Positions 4,761-16,380 are shown, counted from the stretch's first letter. The stretch: 64,000 bases of DNA from Candidatus Fermentibacteraceae bacterium (GCA_027067855.1 JAMOUX010000044.1:3965-67964); one strand, 5' to 3'. The notes: generated by a model from the sequence alone, not told the origin. Numbers and translations: made by a program.

Positions 4761-6128
4761 TCAAACCCTTTTCATCTTCACCATCGTTCTCTTCAAATTC
4801 CTGGGCCCCAGGACCGTCCGCATGGTCTTCAGCAATCTCCTGGGATTCGTATAAAACTTCCAGAACGCCTTCTTCTTCAGTTTTTCTATCTCCGACGGGG
4901 TAATACCTTCAAGCCGGTATACCGAATTGTGAAAGCAGTCGAACTCGCAGTAATCCTTGTCTATCAGTTCCTTCGTCCTGTCCCACAGAACCGTGTGGGG
5001 AAAAGGGGTGGTTATGTCGAATATCGCGTCGTCGAATGGCTCGGCCGCCGCGAAATTTATGGTTTTCATCATTTCTTCCCTGGTTTCTCCCGGGGCTCCC
5101 AGCATGAAATATCCCTGTACCACCAGGCCCCTCTCCTTCGCCATCCTGACCGCTCTTCTGACTCCCTCGACGGTTATACCCTTTTCGTAGATTTCATCGA
5201 GTACTCTCTGGGAAGCGGATTCGACTCCCATGTTCACCTTCGACAAACCCGCCCGTACCATGTGATCCAGGAGGTCTTCATTCAGCAGATCGGCCCGGAC
5301 ATTGCAACACCACTTAAGATCAAGGCCGCTTTCGATCAGGGCATCGCATATCCCGTGAACCCATCCCCCATCCACGACAAACGTCGAGTCTTCGAACATG
5401 AAGGCATCTATGCCGTAATCCGATACCAGGAGTTCCAGTTCCGCCAGGATTGATCCGGCGGATCTCTTCCTCATCCTTTTACCGAAAATTTCGCTCAGGG
5501 TCGGCTGACAGAACGTGCACTTGAAGGGGCATCCCCTGGTCGCCATTATCGAGGTGCCCCTGAGATCGGGGTCCACCCTGTCCATGGAATACCACGTCTC
5601 GAAGTACTTCTCCATGTCGAACATGGACCTGTCCGGCAGGGGCAGTTCGTCAAGATCGCGAACCAGCAGAAGCCCCGGAGTCCTGAATATCTCTCCGTCC
5701 TTCATCATGGTGAAGCCGGGAATATCCGCGGGATTCTCACCATTCACGAACCTTCTCCAGGCCGTCTCGGCTTCCCCGGAGTAGACCAGGTCCGCATTCG
5801 TCCTTCTGAGGGTGTCTTCAGGAAGCACAGTGGCATGCGGACCACCAACCACCAGCAGCGCATCCGGAAGTTCCTCCCTCACTATCCCGGCCGTTCTCAC
5901 GGCATCCGCAAGCTGGGGAGTCAGCACCGATATGCCGACGGTATCCGGTCGGTAACCGGACAACACCGCCCGAAGTTCTTCGAAAGGATGCTCCATGAAA
6001 GACATATCGAATACCTTGACATCCAGTCCTTCACCACGGGAAACGGCGGTCAGCATCCCGATTCCCAGGGGAGGCTGCCCGGAAGGATATCTCGTCTCGG
6101 GAAATACGAACAACACCTTGTCCATCAT
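4761..6128 (-). CDS. Cobalamin-binding radical SAM protein (class B methyltransferase-like)
   Basis: PPLGIGML and VVGGPHAT (B12-binding domain); TRGCPFKCTFC (CxxxCxxC); GVESAS; FMLGAPGET. Confidence 0.9.
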   Translation of the reverse strand: MMDKVLFVFPETRYPSGQPPLGIGMLTAVSRGEGLDVKVFDMSFMEHPFEELRAVLSGYRPDTVGISVLTPQLADAVRTAGIVREELPDALLVVGGPHATVLPEDTLRRTNADLVYSGEAETAWRRFVNGENPADIPGFTMMKDGEIFRTPGLLLVRDLDELPLPDRSMFDMEKYFETWYSMDRVDPDLRGTSIMATRGCPFKCTFCQPTLSEIFGKRMRKRSAGSILAELELLVSDYGIDAFMFEDSTFVVDGGWVHGICDALIESGLDLKWCCNVRADLLNEDLLDHMVRAGLSKVNMGVESASQRVLDEIYEKGITVEGVRRAVRMAKERGLVVQGYFMLGAPGETREEMMKTINFAAAEPFDDAIFDITTPFPHTVLWDRTKELIDKDYCEFDCFHNSVYRLEGITPSEIEKLKKKAFWKFYTNPRRLLKTMRTVLGPRNLKRTMVKMKRV

Positions 6129-6559: not shown

Positions 6560-7003
6560 ATGGCTGTTTTCCTTACTGTACTTTCCATCATAACCGCAAT
6601 ACCCGGGGACGGAGCATTCGAGCTTGGCGCAATACTCGGTGAACCCACCGGCATCTCCCTCAAATACTGGACCGGTGCAAGCACCGCCCTGGATGGAGCG
6701 GTGTCCTGGTCGCTCAGGACCGGTAGAGGCGACTGGCTCTACATTCACTGGGATTACCTCTGGCACAACTTCCATCTCATCAAGGATGAAAGCGTCGATA
6801 TCCCTCTATACTACGGCATCGGCGGCAGAACAGTCCTTGGAGGCGGAGATACCTGGCTGGGCCTGAGATTTCCCGTGGGGCTTTCGTGGCTTCTGAACGG
6901 AGCGCCCCTGGATATCTTTCTTGAATTGGCAGGGGTGATCAACTTGGTGCCCGGCACCGATTTCGACATCAACGGAGGATTAGGCATCAGGTACGTCTTC
7001 TGA
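6560..7003 (+). CDS. Small outer-membrane beta-barrel protein (DUF3996-like)
   Basis: Signal peptide, LGAILGEPTGISLKYW, alternating beta strands, C-terminal GIRYVF; SD GAAAGGAG. Confidence 0.65.
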   Translation: MAVFLTVLSIITAIPGDGAFELGAILGEPTGISLKYWTGASTALDGAVSWSLRTGRGDWLYIHWDYLWHNFHLIKDESVDIPLYYGIGGRTVLGGGDTWLGLRFPVGLSWLLNGAPLDIFLELAGVINLVPGTDFDINGGLGIRYVF

Positions 7004-7013
7004 CGGATGAGAG

Positions 7014-7039
7014 TGCACGGGGGCGTACGCCCCCGTGCA
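7014..7039. terminator. Perfect 26-bp inverted repeat between convergent genes; probable bidirectional terminator
   Basis: TGCACGGGGGCGTACGCCCCCGTGCA, extendable by ATGAGAG/CTCTCAT. Confidence 0.7.
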
Positions 7040-7051
7040 ACCCTCTCATGC

Positions 7052-7615
7052 TCAGTTTCTCGGACCTGTTGGCAGAACGGTCTTCCCGAACTTTTCGTTC
7101 AACACTTCCGCCGCGGCGAGGTAGATCGCCGAAAAGCCGCAGATTATTCCCTCGAAACCCGTCATCCTGCCGAACCATTCCGGCATCCGGAACCAGTGTT
7201 CCAGCGCAAGAAGCCAGAACAGCACGGTCAGGCTGGCGAATACGAATTGCAGGGACCTGTTGGTTCCCCAGGTACCGAACCACATCCAGAAAGTGAACAG
7301 CCCCCACATGAACAGATACCATCCCAGGAATACGGGATCGAAATCGTACCATCCGAACCTTCCACCCAGGAAGATGAAAACCAGGGAAAGCCAGAACAGA
7401 CCGTAACTGGTGAATGCCGTGGTTCCGAAAGTGTTTCCCTTCCGAAACTCCATCACGCCGGCTATGACCTGGGCCATTCCTCCGTAGAAAATACCCATGG
7501 CCAGTATCATTATGTCGTTACCGAAAAAACCCGCGTTGTGCAGATTGAGGAGCACTGTGGTCATGCCGAATCCCATCAACCCCAAGGGGGCGGGATTTGA
7601 AAGTTTATCGCTCAT
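7052..7615 (-). CDS. satP: Acetate uptake transporter, GPR1/FUN34/YaaH (SatP) family
   Basis: NPAPLGLMGFGMTTVLLNLHNAG; GNTFGTTAFTSYGLFW. Confidence 0.93.
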   Translation of the reverse strand: MSDKLSNPAPLGLMGFGMTTVLLNLHNAGFFGNDIMILAMGIFYGGMAQVIAGVMEFRKGNTFGTTAFTSYGLFWLSLVFIFLGGRFGWYDFDPVFLGWYLFMWGLFTFWMWFGTWGTNRSLQFVFASLTVLFWLLALEHWFRMPEWFGRMTGFEGIICGFSAIYLAAAEVLNEKFGKTVLPTGPRN

Positions 7616-7640
7616 ACGGCCTCCAATCCTGCATCAGTCG

Positions 7641-7668
7641 ATTCGGCACGCCGGAAGGCGTGCCGAAT
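7641..7668. terminator. 12-bp-stem hairpin between kbl and satP (terminator or RNA-stabilising element)
   Basis: ATTCGGCACGCC-GGAA-GGCGTGCCGAAT; no clear U-tract. Confidence 0.5.
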
Positions 7669-7691
7669 ACATCGTCGCTTCCAAGAACGGC

Positions 7692-8939
7692 CTACGTACC
7701 GTACCTGGCTATTATTTCTTCCTTGCTCAGGCCCAGGATTCCATACTTCTCTCCCACTTTTCCGAAAGCCTCGACACACTTGTCTATGTGCTCACGCTCA
7801 TGGGCCGCGGAAAGTTGAACCCTGATCCTGGCTTTGCCGGCGGGGACGACCGGGAAGAAGAAACCTATCACGTAGATTCCCTCGGCATACATGTCTCTCG
7901 CCATATCGTTGGCCAACTTTGCGTTGTATAACATAACCGGAACGATGGGAGTCTCACCCGGCCTTATGTTCAACCCTATCTTCTCCATTTTCCCGCGGAA
8001 ATAATTCGTGTTCCACTCGAGTTTATCCCTGCGTTCCGTACTCCGGGAAATGAGATCTATGACCTTGATGGAGGCGCTCACTATCGGAGGCGCGAGGGAA
8101 TTGCTGAAGAGATAGGGCCTGGCCTTCTGGCGGCATAGTTCCACCAGTTCCCTTCTCCCCGACACGCAACCTCCGGATGCTCCTCCAAGGCCCTTGCCGA
8201 ATGTAGTCGTAATCACATCCACTCCGTCCATAACGCCGAAGTGTTCGTGGGTGCCCCTGCCGGTCTTCCCTATGAAACCGGTGGCATGGGAATCGTCGAC
8301 TAGAAGCATTGCGTCGTACTTGTCGCAAAGGGCCACCATCTCGTCGAGGGGAGCCAGGTCGCCGTCCATGGAGAATACTCCGTCGGTCACCACCAATCTG
8401 GTTCTCTTGTCCTGGTGTAATTCGAGTTTCTTTTCCAGGTGCTTCATGTTCATGTGCTTGAACGTATCGTACTCGGCGGAGCAAAGCCTGATTCCGTCCA
8501 CCAGCGAGGCATGAATGAGCCTGTCGGCTATTATAACGTCATTCTGCCCCAGTATGGCCTCGAAAACACCGGAGTTGGCATCCATGCACGAGGGGAAGAG
8601 AAGGGTATCCTCCATTCCCAGGAAAGCCGACATTTTGTCCTGCAGCTCGCGGTGAATATCCTGAGTACCGCAGATGAACCTCACCGAACTCATCCCGTAA
8701 CCGCGGCTGTCAAGCCCCTCGTGCGCAGCCTTTATAACCTCCGGGTGACTTGAAAGACCGAGGTAGTTGTTCGCGCAGAAGTTGAGGACCTTGCGCCTGG
8801 GCGCTCCCTCGGGGTATTCCACCACTATTTCGGCGCCCTGTTCCGAACAGATGAACCTCTTCTCCTTGTAGAGACCGTCATCCTTGATGCGCTGTATTTC
8901 TTCAGCAAACACCTTCCTGGTCTCGTCGTTGAACGCCAT
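7692..8939 (-). CDS. kbl: Glycine C-acetyltransferase-like PLP alpha-oxoamine synthase
   Basis: NFCANNYLGLSSHP, MSSVRFICGTQDIH, DGVFSMDGD, DDSHATG, TFGKGLGGASGG, RPYLFSNSL, FPVVPAGKARIRVQLSAAH. Confidence 0.9.
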   Translation of the reverse strand: MAFNDETRKVFAEEIQRIKDDGLYKEKRFICSEQGAEIVVEYPEGAPRRKVLNFCANNYLGLSSHPEVIKAAHEGLDSRGYGMSSVRFICGTQDIHRELQDKMSAFLGMEDTLLFPSCMDANSGVFEAILGQNDVIIADRLIHASLVDGIRLCSAEYDTFKHMNMKHLEKKLELHQDKRTRLVVTDGVFSMDGDLAPLDEMVALCDKYDAMLLVDDSHATGFIGKTGRGTHEHFGVMDGVDVITTTFGKGLGGASGGCVSGRRELVELCRQKARPYLFSNSLAPPIVSASIKVIDLISRSTERRDKLEWNTNYFRGKMEKIGLNIRPGETPIVPVMLYNAKLANDMARDMYAEGIYVIGFFFPVVPAGKARIRVQLSAAHEREHIDKCVEAFGKVGEKYGILGLSKEEIIARYGT

Positions 8940-8953
8940 CTATCTTCCTCCGA

Positions 8954-9202
8954 TCAGCCCATGTGTTTTTTTACCAGCGCACAGATGGAATTGACGGTAT
9001 CGAAAGCTTCCGGGGTCGCTTCTTCGTCCGGAAGCTTCACCTTGTACTTATTCTCGAGGAACTTCTTCAACGAAACCATGGAGAAGCTGTCCACGATACC
9101 CGAGGATATAAGAGGCGAATCGTAGGTTACCTCGTCCTCTTCGTCCTCTTCCAGGTATTCGTCTATTACATATTGAAGCACGACGTCCTTCATTTCATCC
9201 AT
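8954..9202 (-). CDS. Stand-alone acyl carrier protein
   Basis: Acidic ~82-aa protein with SGIVDSFSMVSL (phosphopantetheine Ser) and F-x-TV in the C-terminal helix; SD GGAG. Confidence 0.88.
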   Translation of the reverse strand: MDEMKDVVLQYVIDEYLEEDEEDEVTYDSPLISSGIVDSFSMVSLKKFLENKYKVKLPDEEATPEAFDTVNSICALVKKHMG

Positions 9203-9218
9203 TTCCGTCTCCTTTCCT

Positions 9219-10967
9219 CTATTCATCCGACAGGGTGGACAGGTCTCCCACTTCCTCGCCCCATTCCAGGGCTCTCAGGTATCTTCTGACGATCTTTCCG
9301 GACCTGGTCTTGGGCAACTTTTCCACGTACTCTATCTCCTGAGGCATCGCCAGCGGAGACAGTTTCTTGCGTATGAAGTTCATGATGTCCAATTCCAGTT
9401 CCTCGGAAGGTTCATAACCCGGTTTGAGGGTGACGAAAGCCTTGACCACCTCCATATTGACTTTGTCGGGCTTGCCCACCGCCGCGGCCTCCGCTATCGC
9501 TTCATGCTCCACCAGGGCCGATTCTATTTCGAAGGGTCCCACCAGGTGCCCGCCGGTGTTTATCACATCGTCGTCCCTGCCCACGAACCAGAAGTAGCCG
9601 TCGGCGTCTATGCTCGCTCTGTCTCCCGATACGTACCAGAGGCTTTTGTCCGTACGAAGTTCGTCGGGCATCGCGTCTTCCCTCGCGCCCACGAACTTGC
9701 TCCTGTAGATATCGGGTCTTTTCCAGTACTGCCTGAACATGGATGGCCAGCCGGGCCTGAACGCTATGAGTCCGACCTTACCGGGCTCGGTCAACGGCTC
9801 GTGGGTCTCCAGGTCCAGCACCGACGCTTCTATTCCAGGGAAAGGCTTGCCCATCGAGCCGGGCTTTATCTCCATTCCCGGATAGTTGCTTATCATGATC
9901 GCACCGGTCTCGGTTTGCCAGAAAGTATCGTGAAATTTCAGGCCGCCGAATACTTCCCCGCTCCATATGACCGCCTCGGGATTGAGCGGTTCTCCCACCG
10001 ACGCAAGGTGCCGCAGGGAAGACAGGTCGTACTTCTTCACCAGTTCCCCGCCGTCTTTCATGAGCGCCCTTATCGCCGTCGGAGCGGAGTACCAGACACT
10101 GACCTTGTTGTCCTGGATGAACTGGTACCACCTGGCGGAAGTGAAACCGGAATCCAGCACGCACTGGGTTACTCCCAGGGACCACGGGCCGATGATACCG
10201 TAACTGGTACCCGTGACCCAGCCGGGGTCAGCCGTACACCAGTAGATGTCGTCATCACGAAGATCCAGGACCCAATTAGCCGTCAAGGCCTGGCCCCAAA
10301 TGGAATTGTGGACATGAAGAGCGCCCTTGGGCTGCCCCGTGGTGCCGGAAGTGTAATGGAGAACGGACGGGGTTTCGGAATCGGACCGGTACACATCGAA
10401 TTCTTTTATCGCGGGATATTTCTCGACATCGAAGAATATCTCGTCACCCTTCAATCTGTCCGGGTTTCCATCCACCACCACCACCTTCTCGAGGTGGGGA
10501 AGCCTTTCCCTGATTTTGCGCACCTTCTTAACATGCTTGACCGTGGTAAGAATCGCCTTGGTCTCAGCGCTGGCCAGTCTCACCTCCAACGACTCCTCTC
10601 CGAAAGCGGAGAAGAGCGGCTGAACTATGGCGCCTATCTTTAAAATTCCAAGGAAGGAGAAGTACAGGCTCGGGATCTTATCCATAAAGATGCATATCCT
10701 GTCGCCGGGTTCCATACCCTGTTCCCGGAGGAATCCGGCGAAAGCGTTGGAGTATACCTTCAGATCATCGAACGTGTACCTGGCGCTGCGACCGCCGAAA
10801 CCCTCCCAGATCAAGGCCGGCTTGCTGCCCTTGCCCATGCCGCATACCCTGTCGGAGCATATCGCGCCGATATTGAGCAGTTCACCATCCTTCCAGTCCA
10901 GGACTTCTTTGGCGATATCCCAACTGAAGTTCTTAACCCTTTCCTCGTAGCTCCCGATGTTGCTCAA
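9219..10967 (-). CDS. acsA: AMP-forming acetate-CoA ligase (AcsA-type adenylating enzyme)
   Basis: HYTSGTTGQPKG, WCTADPGWVTGTSYG, DTFWQTETG, GRDDDVI, LPKTRSGKI. TTG start with SD GGAGG. Confidence 0.9.
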   Translation of the reverse strand: MSNIGSYEERVKNFSWDIAKEVLDWKDGELLNIGAICSDRVCGMGKGSKPALIWEGFGGRSARYTFDDLKVYSNAFAGFLREQGMEPGDRICIFMDKIPSLYFSFLGILKIGAIVQPLFSAFGEESLEVRLASAETKAILTTVKHVKKVRKIRERLPHLEKVVVVDGNPDRLKGDEIFFDVEKYPAIKEFDVYRSDSETPSVLHYTSGTTGQPKGALHVHNSIWGQALTANWVLDLRDDDIYWCTADPGWVTGTSYGIIGPWSLGVTQCVLDSGFTSARWYQFIQDNKVSVWYSAPTAIRALMKDGGELVKKYDLSSLRHLASVGEPLNPEAVIWSGEVFGGLKFHDTFWQTETGAIMISNYPGMEIKPGSMGKPFPGIEASVLDLETHEPLTEPGKVGLIAFRPGWPSMFRQYWKRPDIYRSKFVGAREDAMPDELRTDKSLWYVSGDRASIDADGYFWFVGRDDDVINTGGHLVGPFEIESALVEHEAIAEAAAVGKPDKVNMEVVKAFVTLKPGYEPSEELELDIMNFIRKKLSPLAMPQEIEYVEKLPKTRSGKIVRRYLRALEWGEEVGDLSTLSDE

Positions 10968-11003
10968 AAGACTTCCTCCGTTCCTTGGGTTGAATGGGTT
11001 CCG

Positions 11004-11375
11004 TCAACCTATCGCAGTTGCAACGGCTATCGCATTTTCACCGGAATGGCTCATGGATATTTCCACCATCGTGACGCCGATTTTTCCGGCCCTTTTCAAC
11101 GCGGCACCCGTAAGTCTCACGTGTACCCGGCCGGAATCCTCCTTCACGATCTCGACGTCTTTCCACCTGAGACCCTGTGACAATCCCGCTCCGAGGGCCT
11201 TGAACACGGCTTCCTTCGCGGCGAACCTGGCGGCATAACTCTCCCAGGGTCGTGCCCTGGAACTACAGTACTCCGACTCCCCGGGCAGGAACAATTCCTC
11301 TATAAGGCCGGGGGCGAGTTTTTTCCTGAAAATGCTGATGGAAACGATATCTATTCCGACACCGATCAATTTCAA
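11004..11375 (-). CDS. acpS: Holo-ACP synthase (4'-phosphopantetheinyl transferase)
   Basis: GVGIDIV, AARFAAKEAVFKALG, ISMSHS. Confidence 0.92.
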   Translation of the reverse strand: MKLIGVGIDIVSISIFRKKLAPGLIEELFLPGESEYCSSRARPWESYAARFAAKEAVFKALGAGLSQGLRWKDVEIVKEDSGRVHVRLTGAALKRAGKIGVTMVEISMSHSGENAIAVATAIG

Positions 11376-11500
11376 GAAGGCTCTCCCGGTACCGTGTTTC
11401 CATTCTTTCCGTATACTTTATTACTTTAACAATAAGAACGGTCGGTGTCCACGGTTCGCCCCCCCTTGACGGTACCCTTACCTTGGAGAATAGAATCCTC

Positions 11501-12901
11501 ATGAAATACCCCTCCTCGAAACCGATGTGGAGCAGGCTTCTCTTTCCCTGCCTGCTGGTGATGATTCACGTCTTCATTCTCCTGCGGGAGAGGACCGCCG
11601 CCGAGATTCCCCCCATGGATGACGTCTACATACATCTCGTTTACGGCAGATCGCTGATTTCGGGCAATCCTCTGGTGTACACCGGCGGCGACGGGGCGAC
11701 CACCGGCTTCACCAGCCCGCTCTGGCTGCCGGCAGCCGCAATATCTTCCCAGGCAGGCACTACGGCGGCACCATCACTGTTGATGTTCGCGTCGCTCCTG
11801 GCGGCCGCCACCCTGCTTTACCTGGCCGGACCCATCCCGGCCATGCTCCTTTTCCTCACCGGGCCTTTCGTGTTCCACGCGGCGAGCGGTATGGAAACCT
11901 CCCTGGCATGCCTAGTACTGTTCCTGGCCTGGAGGTGGATGGAAGAGAACGGCACGCCCCGTTCCGGCGGGCTCATACTTCTCGCCGCTTTCCTTTCCCG
12001 ACCGGAACTGGCGCTTCTGGCGATTCCCATGTCACTCTCCCTGAAAAGAATCACCCCGGGGAACGTGGCCGCTCTCCTGGCTCCTTCCGCGGTGGCTGGA
12101 ATCATCTGGGTGTTTTTCAACCTTTCCGTGACGGGACGGCCCCTTCCTTCCACGTTTTACGCCAAGATCTACACATCCTGGCCGGAAGCCGCGAAAATCG
12201 GATTTCCCGGATTACTCAAATCGATGTTCCTGACTTCGCCGCTGCTTCCTTTCGCCACTCTCTTCGCGGCGGCATATACGTGGAAAGACCGGAAACGCGG
12301 GGGCGTAAAGCGCCTCGCCCCGGCCCTCACTCCTCTCGTACTGTTCCTGGCCGCCTTATCCATGCAACCCAACGGTTACTTTCAGCTCAGGTATTACGTT
12401 CCATTCCTCGTCTCTTCGGTTCTCCTGGTCGCCCGCCGGCTGGAGAACTCCATTAAAGACCGAAAACGTAGAATACTGAGCACGGCGATACTGGCCGCAT
12501 CCATGGTGCCCGGCTTTCTTGTATTCACCGGCAGGCGTATCGATGCATCCAGGGATGTGATGTACATCGACGTAATGCCGGCGAAGCTCATCGAAAGCAT
12601 AGCCGACCAAGATGCGGTAGTGGCCGCCGCCGACATAGGAGCCGTGGGGTGGATATCGGGAACCGGCATCCTGGACCTGGACGGACTGGTGACCCCCGAA
12701 AGACTCAACGGCGAGAACGCCGGATGGAAATGGATTCGCGAACGGGCCGATTACCTGCTGGCCTTCCCGGAACAATATTCCGATCTCACGGACGAAGCCG
12801 GGGAATCCATCGATTTCATAGGCGGATACCGCAGTCCGACACCGGTCATCTGCGGGGAAGACACCGTGGCCCTCTGGAAAATCGAACGGCTGGACAATTG
12901 A
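11501..12901 (+). CDS. Polytopic membrane protein, GT-C-fold glycosyltransferase-like
   Basis: MDDVYIHLVYGRSL...GFTSPLW, SGMET, SRPEL, PLPSTFYAK, DIGAVGW...ILDLDGLV; many TM segments. Confidence 0.6.
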   Translation: MKYPSSKPMWSRLLFPCLLVMIHVFILLRERTAAEIPPMDDVYIHLVYGRSLISGNPLVYTGGDGATTGFTSPLWLPAAAISSQAGTTAAPSLLMFASLLAAATLLYLAGPIPAMLLFLTGPFVFHAASGMETSLACLVLFLAWRWMEENGTPRSGGLILLAAFLSRPELALLAIPMSLSLKRITPGNVAALLAPSAVAGIIWVFFNLSVTGRPLPSTFYAKIYTSWPEAAKIGFPGLLKSMFLTSPLLPFATLFAAAYTWKDRKRGGVKRLAPALTPLVLFLAALSMQPNGYFQLRYYVPFLVSSVLLVARRLENSIKDRKRRILSTAILAASMVPGFLVFTGRRIDASRDVMYIDVMPAKLIESIADQDAVVAAADIGAVGWISGTGILDLDGLVTPERLNGENAGWKWIRERADYLLAFPEQYSDLTDEAGESIDFIGGYRSPTPVICGEDTVALWKIERLDN

Positions 12902-14218: not shown

Positions 14219-15274
14219 TCAACAAATCCTGGGCAGTTGCTCTCCGCTCAACATGTCAACCACACGCCACGAACCTATCCTGCTTTTCATGACTACGCCG
14301 ACATGTTCACGCGGTGATACCCGACCTATTATCCCGGCGTAAACGCAGGTTTCGTGCTTTCTCATCACCTCCACGGCTTTACGGGCTTCATCCGCCGGAA
14401 GAACCAGTACGAACCTGCCCTCGTTGGGCATGTAAAGCGGATCGAAACCCAGCAATTCACATGCCGCAGCCACTGCATCCGTTACCTTTACCAGTTCCTC
14501 TTCTATGGAAAACGTAACGTCGGCCGTACCCGCGATTTCGTTCAGCGCACCGGCCAGTCCCCCCCTCGTAAGATCTCTCATGCAGTGTATTTCCAACCCG
14601 GCGTTCATCAAATCCAACACCACGTCGCCCAGCGGGGCCAGGTCGCTTACAACCGGCGTGCCGAAACGGATACCCTCCCTTTCGGCCATTATCGCCACCC
14701 CGTGCCTGCCCAGGTCACCGCTCAGCACCACGGCGTCTCCGGATCTCACCATGGACGGAGCCACGAAGACTCCTTCCCGAATAACTCCGATTCCGGCGGT
14801 GTTCACGTAAATCCCGTCGCCTTTCCCTCTGTCCACGACTTTGGTATCCCCGGTAACGATCTCCACACCGGTTTTCCGTGCGGCTTTCGCCATGGAGGAA
14901 ACCACTTTCCAAAGGTCTTCCATGGGAAATCCCTCTTCAATTATGAACCCTGCGGACAACCAAAGCGCCCTGGCACCGCACATCGCGAGGTCATTCACGG
15001 TTCCGTACACCGACAGCGTTCCTATGTCACCTCCCGGGAAGAATATCGGAGTTACCACATGGGAATCCGTGGTGAAGGCCTGCCGCCCGTCCGGCACATC
15101 GAGAACGGCCCCATCGTGCCCGGCCAGGAGCGCCGGGTTCGAGAAAGCCTTCTTCATCATCCCTTCCACCAGGTCGTTCATCAACCTTCCGCCACCGCCG
15201 TGAGCCATGGTTACCCTGGGATATTCCGAAATGGGTATCGGGCATTCCAGCGGCAGAGCGGCTTCATTATTCAT
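14219..15274 (-). CDS. hypE: Hydrogenase maturation protein HypE
   Basis: [23 protein letters not shown]-terminal LPRIC. Start taken at the ATG overlapping the hypD stop. Confidence 0.95.
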
Positions 15275-16380
15275 GCGGATTCCCCTCCCGGATTCCCGTA
15301 CGGGCGATACCTGTAATAAGCGGCACAGGCACCCTCGGCAGACACCATGGGAGCCCCGAGAGGACGCTCCGGAGTGCATTCCGTCCCGAAGGCCGGGCAT
15401 TCGCCCGGTTTTATCCTCCCCATGAGAACCGAACCCGCCATGCAGCTTTCCGATTCTTCCACGGAATGCCCGCCCACTCCGAATTTCCTGCCGGCATCGA
15501 ATGCGGCATAGCGTTTTCTCAACTTCAATCCGCTGTCCGGAATCGTTCCGAGGCCCCTCCACTTCCTGTCCGTGACCTGGAATACCCGGCGTATCATATC
15601 CATGGCGGTAACGTTCCCGTCCCTGGTCACAACCCTCACGTATTGATTCTCCACGGACGTCGTCCCTCTCTCCAGCTGCCTCACGCACATCAGGATACCT
15701 TCCAGTATATCCAGGGGTTCGAAGCCGGTCACAACGATGGGTACGCCGTATTTCTCCGCCATGGGTTCATACTCCCGGTAACCCATTACGGTACATACGT
15801 GTCCCGCCGCGAGAAAACCGTCCACGACGTTCTCTTTCCCGGACAAGATCAGCTCCATCGCCGGCGGAACCAGGACATGGGCCACGAGCATCGAAAAGTT
15901 ACCCAGGCCGAGTCTCTCCGCCTGCAGGACCGCCGCGGCGGTCACCGGTGCGGTGGTTTCGAATCCGACCGCGAAGAATACCACCTCCCTGTCCGGGTTA
16001 TTTTCGGCGATGGCCACAGCATCCATGGGCGAATAGACCACTCTCACGTCACCACCCCCGGACTTTACCCCCATGAGGTCGTCGGTACTTCCCGGAACCC
16101 TCAACATGTCGCCGAAGGAACAGAAGACGATTCCTTCCATCGATGCCAGGCGCACCGCCTGATCCACCATTTCCACGGGGGTTACGCACACGGGACAGCC
16201 GGGCCCGTGAATCAGCGTCAACTCGTCGGGTAAAAGCCTGTCTATACCGTATTTCACTATCGAGTGGGTCTGTCCGCCGCAAATCTCCATGATCTTCCAC
16301 GGCCCGGTGACCGCCGCGGCGATCGCTTCCGCGTACCTGCCCGCGGTCTCAGCGTTCCTGTACTCCGATACGTACTTCAA
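15271..16380 (-). CDS. hypD: Hydrogenase maturation protein HypD
   Basis: [39 protein letters not shown]. Confidence 0.96.

Follow-up and report, generated by a model that had tools for sequence, protein, structure and literature searches.

A ligase, a specialised acyl carrier protein (ACP) and an alpha-oxoamine synthase are encoded together, apart from the housekeeping carrier AcpP, in the AasR-AcpR-SPT system of Caulobacter and other Rhodobacteria; as described there, AasR acylates AcpR only and the synthase, serine palmitoyltransferase (SPT), prefers acyl-AcpR (PMC9386255). By analogy, this is the closest known system in logic to the locus that we describe here: an operon of five co-oriented genes at positions 7052-11375 of a 64,000-nt stretch of DNA from Candidatus Fermentibacteraceae bacterium (the window, in which all coordinates are counted unless a locus is named). 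The core of the operon, which we call the module, consists of genes for an Acs-family ligase, an ACP and a Kbl-clade synthase. AasR is a FadD-type long-chain ligase that works with SPT, using a C16 acid and serine for sphingolipids, whereas the module has an Acs-type ligase with an acetate pocket and a Kbl-type synthase; the operon also adds a dedicated AcpS, and no lipid genes follow.

The canonical Tdh-Kbl pathway (E. coli 1FC4; Coxiella 3TQX; Cupriavidus 7BXP) is similar in that our synthase reaches 450-456 bits in matches to solved Kbl enzymes and the source genome encodes a Tdh of the short-chain dehydrogenase/reductase (SDR) type. However, the canonical pathway uses coenzyme A (CoA) and no ACP, while in the module a second clade of Kbl is fixed beside an ACP and coexists with canonical Kbl. 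The ligase shares with AMP-forming Acs (S. enterica 2P2F; 9G79) its fold, acetate pocket, and the equivalents of Lys609 and Arg584; unlike these enzymes, it has Leu at the position of Arg526, a polybasic segment in the region of Arg191/Arg194, and a carrier gene alongside. ATP-dependent acetylation of a carrier-protein thiol by free acetate is carried out by CitC (citrate lyase) and MadH (malonate decarboxylase), whose carriers bear 2'-(5-phosphoribosyl)-3'-dephospho-CoA and not a phosphopantetheine attached by AcpS; these enzymes prime lyase or decarboxylase complexes and belong to families unrelated to Acs. As in the DltA-DltC pair, a small stand-alone carrier lies beside an adenylating enzyme, and some sources label the ACP DltC-like, but the ACP does not reach the DltC models (31.6 vs 68; here and below, score versus cut-off), the ligase is Acs-like rather than DltA-like, and there is no dltB or dltD.

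We read the module as a probable case of the logic of carrier-dependent oxoamine pathways moved to C2 metabolism. We consider it reasonably probable that acetate is loaded onto a private ACP and that the Kbl enzyme exchanges the acetyl group between this ACP and glycine/2-amino-3-oxobutanoate. In the open-access PMC and bioRxiv literature, we found no description of an acs-acp-kbl module or of an Acs-type acetate-ACP ligase.

Organization of the operon

A first-pass annotation of the window, made from its sequence alone, had described five co-oriented genes for a phosphopantetheinyl transferase (PPTase), an Acs-type enzyme, an ACP with the motif GIVDSF, a Kbl-like enzyme and SatP. All five open reading frames (ORFs) are present on the minus strand and match their family models. 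The first gene (11004-11375) encodes a 123-aa AcpS-type 4'-phosphopantetheinyl transferase (PF01648 68.2 vs 25; TIGR00516 61.7 vs 59.8); the second (9219-10967) a 582-aa Acs-family adenylate-forming ligase, which is of the Leu type discussed below (NF003313 744.1 vs 729); the third (8954-9226) a stand-alone carrier protein, 90 aa as listed, with its serine site in GIVDSF (PF00550 21.5 vs 20.8); the fourth (7692-8939) a 415-aa alpha-oxoamine synthase of the Kbl clade (TIGR01822 580 vs 493); and the fifth (7052-7615) a 187-aa acetate channel of the SatP/AceTr type (GPR1/FUN34/YaaH; NF038013 250.4 vs 50; PF01184 125.8 vs 25).

The gaps among the first four genes are indeed shorter than 40 nt, as the annotation had claimed. 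The AcpS-Acs spacer is 36 nt and the ACP-Kbl spacer 14 nt; the Acs and ACP ORFs as listed share 8 nt, but a start of the ACP at an internal Met would leave 16 nt between them. Given that ACP homologues begin at this internal Met (around 9202), the ACP of the window would be 82 aa long. The Kbl-SatP spacer is longer, 76 nt.

The acs-acp-kbl order is conserved across phyla

In a scan with one genome per species, the ACP family was found at 566 loci or more. The best 80 of these, from which percentages and counts of loci are taken unless stated otherwise, all come from metagenome-assembled genomes, and their record titles name Fermentibacteria/Aegiribacteria, Delongbacteria, Zixibacteria, Aminicenantes/Acidobacteria, Bacteroidales, Ignavibacteriales, KSB1, Krumholzibacteria, Gemmatimonadales, Eisenbacteria, Anaerolineae, and Clostridia. 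For adjacency, we counted only loci with enough flanking DNA for the gene in question (75, 71, 68 or 69). Kbl (at least 60% identity) directly follows the ACP in 73/75 loci, the exceptions being L028 and L080, and Acs directly precedes it in 64/71. The same gene order in the best 80 loci, drawn from many phyla, shows that the arrangement is far beyond chance.

Of the acs-acp-kbl(-tdh) synteny raised in the first-pass annotation, then, the first three genes stay together across phyla, while tdh is adjacent only through an SDR gene family (Tdh-like) in 7/80 loci. The one member of this family that was tested (L031) is 52% identical to the source genome's own SDR, which is itself similar to solved L-threonine 3-dehydrogenases (E = 1e-126 to 1e-100). 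The five-gene layout likewise holds in the window but not, as regards SatP, in most related loci: SatP lies downstream of Kbl in 17/69 loci and AcpS upstream of the ligase in 50/68, so that both are accessory members of the module.

Other neighbours are less frequent. A second Kbl paralogue (45-60% identity) occurs in 32/80 loci, DUF485 and sodium:solute symporter (SSF) families in 5/80 each (annotated from L015 only), and a fusion of a Pat-like ADP-forming acetyl-CoA synthetase with GNAT in nine (one member annotated). Near the best 80 loci, we found no further conserved gene family, including other ACP-using enzymes, and no tailoring genes. In a census of the phylum (70 species genomes), the ACP is present in 53, with 51/59 genomes of the window's family and 0/9 of a second family; among 151 genomes sampled from the order that holds a Prolixibacteraceae carrier, it is present in 16.

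Some loci depart from the common layout. At L012:3320-5305 and L061:7565-8993, AcpS comes straight before ACP and Kbl with no ligase in between, and at L025 and L078 the ligase is about 6 kb away. In one Bacteroidales-order genome, the module ACP (G180:C1:3498571-3498810) is on a contig of more than 3.49 Mb, which means that this assembly is closed or nearly so.

The PPTase and the carrier protein are dedicated parts

The source genome (1.86 Mb in 44 contigs, 98.86% complete) has a second, housekeeping AcpS on contig C26, where tsaD-like and nnr-like genes flank it. Also separate from the operon, contig C13 holds a canonical fabH-fabD-fabG-acpP-fabF set. Because these housekeeping functions are encoded elsewhere, the AcpS and ACP of the operon are dedicated parts. 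The whole genome contains a single ketosynthase (FabF, on C13) and no condensation domain of nonribosomal peptide synthetases (NRPS); polyketide synthase (PKS) and NRPS systems were not found, and the statement that the operon has no fab, PKS or NRPS genes nearby proved correct.

The ACP reaches none of the curated NCBIfam models that we compared it with; besides DltC, the scores are 58 vs 130 for ACP_for_OlsHI, the best, and 24.3 vs 70.45 for acyl_carrier. The name of the former model refers to the OlsHI ornithine-lipid pathway, going by the description in PMC12971839. Counted from the sequence, the net charge of the ACP is about -12. It has 4834 relatives at E<=0.001, and across 30 relatives from several phyla 37 columns are invariant. 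We also considered acetyl-ACP as a primer of fatty acid synthesis in a genome without FabH and rejected this idea, as FabH is present.

The ligase has an acetate pocket and Leu in place of Arg526

The only Acs-type gene in the source genome is that of the operon. Among solved chains, the ligase is closest to 9g79, a 572-aa Acs (553.5 bits), and it scores 356 bits with S. enterica Acs; it does not reach the model for long Acs (TIGR02188, 495 vs 724.95) and is far under the cut-offs of long-chain ligase models. We counted S. enterica residue numbers along an alignment with the ligase and applied them to 60 ligases of the module. The equivalents of V310, T311, V386 and W414, which we take to form the acetate pocket of the S. 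enterica enzyme, are V, T, V and W in 60/60, 60/60, 60/60 and 57/60 ligases, with Phe replacing the Trp in the other three; the window ligase has all four. The proposal in the first-pass annotation that this is a C2 analogue of the long-chain systems agrees with the intact pocket and with the closeness of both ligase and synthase to solved Acs and Kbl structures.

In contrast to the pocket, the equivalent of Arg526 is Leu in 60/60 module ligases, at residue 475 in the ligase of the window. According to work on the arginines of Acs, Arg191, Arg526 and Arg584 are highly conserved in Acs and needed for CoA binding and the thioester-forming step; in M. thermautotrophicus Acs, the R528A variant was not saturable with CoA and kcat fell 130- to 326-fold in R528K/Q, while earlier work on S. 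enterica Acs gave milder effects (PMC10455477). With Leu for Arg526, the ligase lacks one of these three conserved arginines. Residues 138-160 form a polybasic segment, which in the alignment falls where long Acs have Arg191/Arg194. The alignment is poor across this basic stretch, and no residue can be assigned with confidence as the Arg191 equivalent.

We predicted the complex of ligase and ACP, which scored 0.37, compared with 0.00 for the best of three controls; the mark that we used is reached by 58/80 solved complexes and 2/110 mismatched pairs, and passes at 0.60 or less comprise only 7/80 solved complexes and both of the passing mismatches. At least 86% of contacts are shared between runs, with a partner pLDDT (predicted local distance difference test) of 83 or higher. 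Solved complexes of adenylating enzymes with carriers are similar, so the pass may reflect memory or likeness on the part of the model, and the prediction lends weak support to the pairing.

A 16-residue insertion (REDAMPDELRTDKSL-like) precedes WYVSGD at about residues 429-444 of the ligase. It is found only in a Fermentibacteria-type subclade of module ligases, and we rejected it as a universal docking element for that reason.

The ACP-linked Kbl enzymes form a separate clade

The synthase scores 456 bits against 3tqx and 450.5 bits against 1fc4, and it keeps the motif of the lysine that binds pyridoxal phosphate (PLP), TFGKGLGG, as well as HAS and DDSH. It reaches neither the SPT models (333.9/640, 287.9/500, 246.2/670) nor those of BioF and ALAS. 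A tree of 107 sequences, taken from the loci and the source genome, groups 70 ACP-linked Kbl proteins in one tight clade, and the paralogues adjacent to the module form a more diverse Kbl grade; the expectation that ACP-linked Kbl proteins would have a clade of their own is thus borne out. This clade lies outside the canonical tdh-associated lineage, and the canonical paralogue of the source genome is another gene, on contig C29 (608 bits).

Eighteen positions are fixed in the ACP-linked clade and differ from the paralogues, and the clade has a conserved C-terminal tail. Among the changes are SCMDAN for SCFDAN, DRL(I/V)HAS for D(E/Q/S)LNHAS, and Thr for His before PIVPVM; Arg at the DRL(I/V)HAS position also occurs in BioF-like and SPT-like genes of the source genome. 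The length is exactly 415 aa in 61/69 loci. In all, the source genome has four oxoamine synthases: canonical Kbl on C29, the operon Kbl, an SPT-like enzyme on C28, and a fourth on C26 that we take to be BioF-like from its alignment only. Genomes of the phylum that lack the module have a single Kbl-scoring gene; most carriers have two.

Two of these other synthases have neighbours worth recording. The SPT-like gene on C28 (L006:7933-9165, minus strand) is closest to the model of Bacteroidota-type serine palmitoyltransferase (517.7 vs 640) and is divergent from an HpnA-like SDR gene (L006:9205-10188, plus strand); the pair possibly starts sphingolipid or sulfonolipid synthesis. On C29 (L005:6472-11216), the ORF of canonical Kbl is 445 aa long, its N-terminus possibly called too long, and it is surrounded by a sulfatase/phosphoethanolamine-transferase-like gene, two ORFs without a family, and a transporter of the major facilitator superfamily; the SDR-type Tdh gene lies a further 4.3 kb along, past thiC.

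Leu-type ligases outside the module

To place the Leu in a wider context, we collected 172,779 relatives of the ligase at E<=0.001 and took the best 150 representatives at 50% clustering, 86 of them full length. The position of Arg526 is Arg in 48, Leu in 24 and Met in 3 of the 86. In the ligase tree, short Acs of the Arg type are basal, and the non-Arg (Leu/Met/Phe) types form one derived clade with one reversal to Arg. The ligases linked to an ACP belong to this derived clade, an outcome that the first-pass annotation had set out as a check; across the clade, adjacency to a carrier is scattered.

A metagenome scan seeded with Leu-type representatives gave 80 loci: 18 of the module class (ACP and Kbl beside a ligase of at least 57% identity), 8 of the Arg type, and 54 non-module loci of the Leu/Met/Phe type. 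A co-oriented ORF with a PP-binding domain lies in the flank of 16/54 non-module loci, 4 of these 16 being seeds of the search profile, compared with 0/8 Arg-type loci; with adequate flanks, the counts are 10/23 non-module Leu-type and 0/4 Arg-type. Pfam confirmed 4/4 of the PP-binding ORFs in one set and placed 11/12 above the cut-off in another. The mean net charge of the polybasic segment is +5.6 in the module (n=28). Among the remaining Leu-type ligases, it is +2.6 where a carrier is adjacent (n=16) and +1.9 where none was seen (n=38), and in the Arg type it is -1.0 (n=8).

The non-module Leu-type ligases have varied partners. In one context, the ligase is followed by genes for E1alpha, E1beta and E2 of the pyruvate dehydrogenase (PDH) type and then an ACP; in another by a gene like homocitrate/isopropylmalate synthase (below all cut-offs) and then an ACP; and there are also plain ACP-ligase and ligase-ACP pairs. 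Such ligases beside a carrier are found in the metagenome loci L117:4818-10056, L129:4794-10225, L104:3948-7402, L108:2018-4100, and L109:4722-6844. These carrier-adjacent ligases may belong to further carrier-dependent acetyl systems. The source names of Leu-type ligase clusters were uninformative.

A broader and bolder reading would make the whole Leu-for-Arg526 branch acetate:[carrier protein] ligases, serving a CoA-independent acetyl-carrier economy in many uncultured anaerobes with three or more kinds of partner, namely Kbl, PDH-type E1/E2 and a homocitrate-synthase-like enzyme. In the operon described here, ATP would then power the conversion of acetate and glycine to 2-amino-3-oxobutanoate and, through Tdh, to threonine, as the sole threonine route of a source genome that lacks ThrC. 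We put this reading forward tentatively and think it rather unlikely.

Proposed mechanism and its direction

In our model, the operon AcpS would turn the small, very acidic ACP into its holo form. The Acs-family ligase would activate acetate with ATP to give acetyl-AMP and pyrophosphate (PPi) and then load the acetyl group onto the pantetheine thiol of the ACP (acetyl-S-ACP) rather than onto CoA. The Kbl-clade PLP enzyme would catalyse the reversible reaction acetyl-ACP + glycine <-> 2-amino-3-oxobutanoate + holo-ACP, an SDR-type threonine dehydrogenase would link 2-amino-3-oxobutanoate to threonine, and SatP would move acetate across the membrane. A private ACP pool kept acetylated at the cost of ATP -> AMP + PPi could drive the condensation where it would not be favourable by itself, and would keep acetyl groups away from the acetate-forming AckA branch. 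We infer ACP acylation, the use of acetyl-ACP by Kbl, and the reaction direction from what can be observed directly, namely gene content, dedicated parts, conservation, clades and residue patterns; the computational tests that we ran all agree with the carrier-protein interpretation and support it.

The first-pass annotation had allowed for both directions. Given this mechanism, we find the condensing, acetate-consuming direction somewhat more likely than its reverse. AMP-forming ligases normally activate acids, and the AasR-AcpR-SPT system also works towards condensation. The transporters near the module belong to two families annotated for acetate uptake (SatP; DUF485 with SSF), a Pat-like regulator is among the neighbours, and one sister system has a homocitrate-synthase-like condensing enzyme. 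An ATP-driven private pool would, moreover, provide a reason for having an ACP at all. The source genome has AckA, and its match to Pta is only weak. Two observations tell against condensation: ThrC is present in 27/53 carrier genomes of the phylum, and the module often has in its vicinity canonical tdh and kbl, whose usual role is in breakdown (a Kbl paralogue in 32/80 loci).

The distribution of ThrC also bears on what condensation could be for. None was found in the source genome (98.9% complete), and across the phylum ThrC above cut-off is absent from 42/70 genomes; among five other carriers, it is above cut-off in two. We therefore considered the module as a general replacement of threonine synthase but rejected this, since the ACP is present in 27/28 genomes that have ThrC above cut-off, and the one family lacking the module (0/9) has no ThrC either (0/9); there is no complementary pattern of ThrC and module. 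These absences of ThrC, with a whole family lacking both, suggest that threonine auxotrophy is common in the phylum.

The explanation that survives best beside condensation uses the same parts, nested inside the carrier-dependent mechanism, for breakdown: Tdh would make 2-amino-3-oxobutanoate, the Kbl paralogue would convert it to glycine and acetyl-ACP, the ligase would run in reverse (with AMP and PPi yielding acetate and ATP), and SatP would export the acetate. Tdh (63/70) and canonical Kbl (68/70) are near-universal in the phylum, their genes are often near the module (Kbl paralogue 32/80, Tdh-like family 7/80), and in two genomes at least 92% complete (G043 and G067) the ACP-linked Kbl is the sole Kbl, with Tdh present. 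Reverse operation of an AMP-forming Acs has reportedly been seen in Syntrophus aciditrophicus, some sister Leu-type ligases sit with PDH-like E1/E2, able only to produce acetyl thioesters, and ThrC coexists with the module. Relatives have been described, from their genomes, as acetate-forming fermenters (PMC5030696). However, it is not evident what breakdown would gain from ACP over CoA, and AckA already serves to make acetate and ATP in the source genome. The transporter families near the module carry annotations for uptake; in E. coli, ActP/YjcH accompany acs for acetate scavenging. Another of the sister systems pairs its ligase with the homocitrate-synthase-like condensing enzyme. On balance, we regard breakdown as a live but rather unlikely alternative.

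Less likely readings: CoA as the usual acceptor, or other substrates

Several observations weigh against the use of a carrier altogether. Both enzymes exceed the curated cut-offs of CoA-dependent families, the ligase that of Acs (744.1 vs 729) and the synthase that of Kbl (580 vs 493). All 60/60 module ligases retain the equivalents of Lys609 and of Arg584, the latter a contact of the CoA 3'-phosphate, so that the ligase might still use CoA. We had considered Leu at Arg526 as a signature unique to the module but rejected this, since with 24/86 full-length representatives it is the mark of a larger clade; no carrier protein is seen in 13/23 of the non-module Leu-type loci with adequate flanks, and with so few Arg-type loci for comparison (Fisher p = 0.10 on all loci) the contrast between Leu and Arg types is suggestive only. 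No Acs is adjacent in 7/71 loci (L012, L018, L025, L028, L052, L061, L078), the support of the ACP-linked Kbl clade is only moderate (0.775), and the predicted ligase-ACP complex is a weak result.

On these grounds, Acs and Kbl might depend on CoA as usual, and the ACP and AcpS next to them would serve something else, for instance regulation, scaffolding or carrier duty in an unrelated pathway. The genome has no Acs-type gene besides that of the operon and may still require some acetyl-CoA synthetase activity, and L012 and L061 have AcpS, ACP and Kbl without an intervening Acs. Against this, the ACP gene lies only a few bases from its Acs and Kbl neighbours on either side in many phyla, and the PPTase is dedicated. 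The loss of Arg526 is invariant in the module, the linked Kbl enzymes form a clade separate from the canonical Kbl of the same genomes, and no other conserved ACP-using enzyme is nearby. We therefore hold this explanation to be quite improbable, and return to acetate loading on the private ACP as the preferred one.

There is little to recommend the idea that the carrier is used for another short acid (propionate, glycolate) and/or another amino acid, giving an aminoketone as a signal, cofactor precursor or lipid head group: secondary metabolism does have oxoamine synthases that act on substrates bound to a carrier (SxtA, prodiginine enzymes), the Kbl clade has changes close to its active site (SCMDAN, DRL(I/V)HAS, Thr before PIVPVM) and 3/60 ligases have Phe for the pocket Trp, but the acetate pocket is invariant or nearly so, the synthase reaches the Kbl model and not those of SPT, BioF or ALAS, acetate transporters of two families lie nearby, and the distribution is wide and core-like with no tailoring genes.

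Significance

Acetyl-CoA is treated as the universal C2 currency. If acetate loading on the private ACP is correct, a widespread and strongly conserved module hands acetyl groups on by way of a protein carrier of its own, three genes are wrongly named by annotation pipelines in hundreds of genomes, and metabolic models of abundant anaerobes of sediments and digesters miss a branch that joins acetate, glycine and threonine. Insulation of C2 units from the CoA pool, with a thermodynamic push and no futile cycling, would then be a design principle for pathway engineering. The varied partner enzymes of the Leu-type ligase clade suggest that the carrier principle extends past this operon.

Other features of the window

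A candidate sigma-70-like promoter lies upstream of acpS (11423-11451, minus strand), a weak match at 9/12 positions. It is the only such match in 6800-11800, and because shuffled sequence averages 2.8 sites it is not above chance; in a scan for promoters and terminators, counts were no higher than in shuffled sequence. Rfam gave no match in the window at the gathering score and none in 6900-11800 at E<=1, and likewise none in nine related loci; a tRNA search found none.

The genes flanking the operon are on the opposite strand and unrelated to it. Upstream, they encode a membrane protein resembling glycosyltransferases and a histidine kinase; downstream, a protein of 147 aa (6560-7003, plus strand). 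The last has no Pfam or NCBIfam match. It adjoins the module in Aegiribacteria/Fermentibacteria loci (54% identity at L029, 61% at L068), and in the window SatP separates its gene from Kbl.

Farther from the operon, 4761-6128 (minus strand) encodes a B12-binding radical SAM protein of 455 aa, which is related to the HpnJ/BchE type and far under all curated cut-offs. At 14219-16380 (minus strand), a HypE-like ORF listed as 489 aa with a GTG start overlaps the end of a HypD-like ORF by about 400 nt, and the true start of the HypE-like ORF is probably further downstream than listed.

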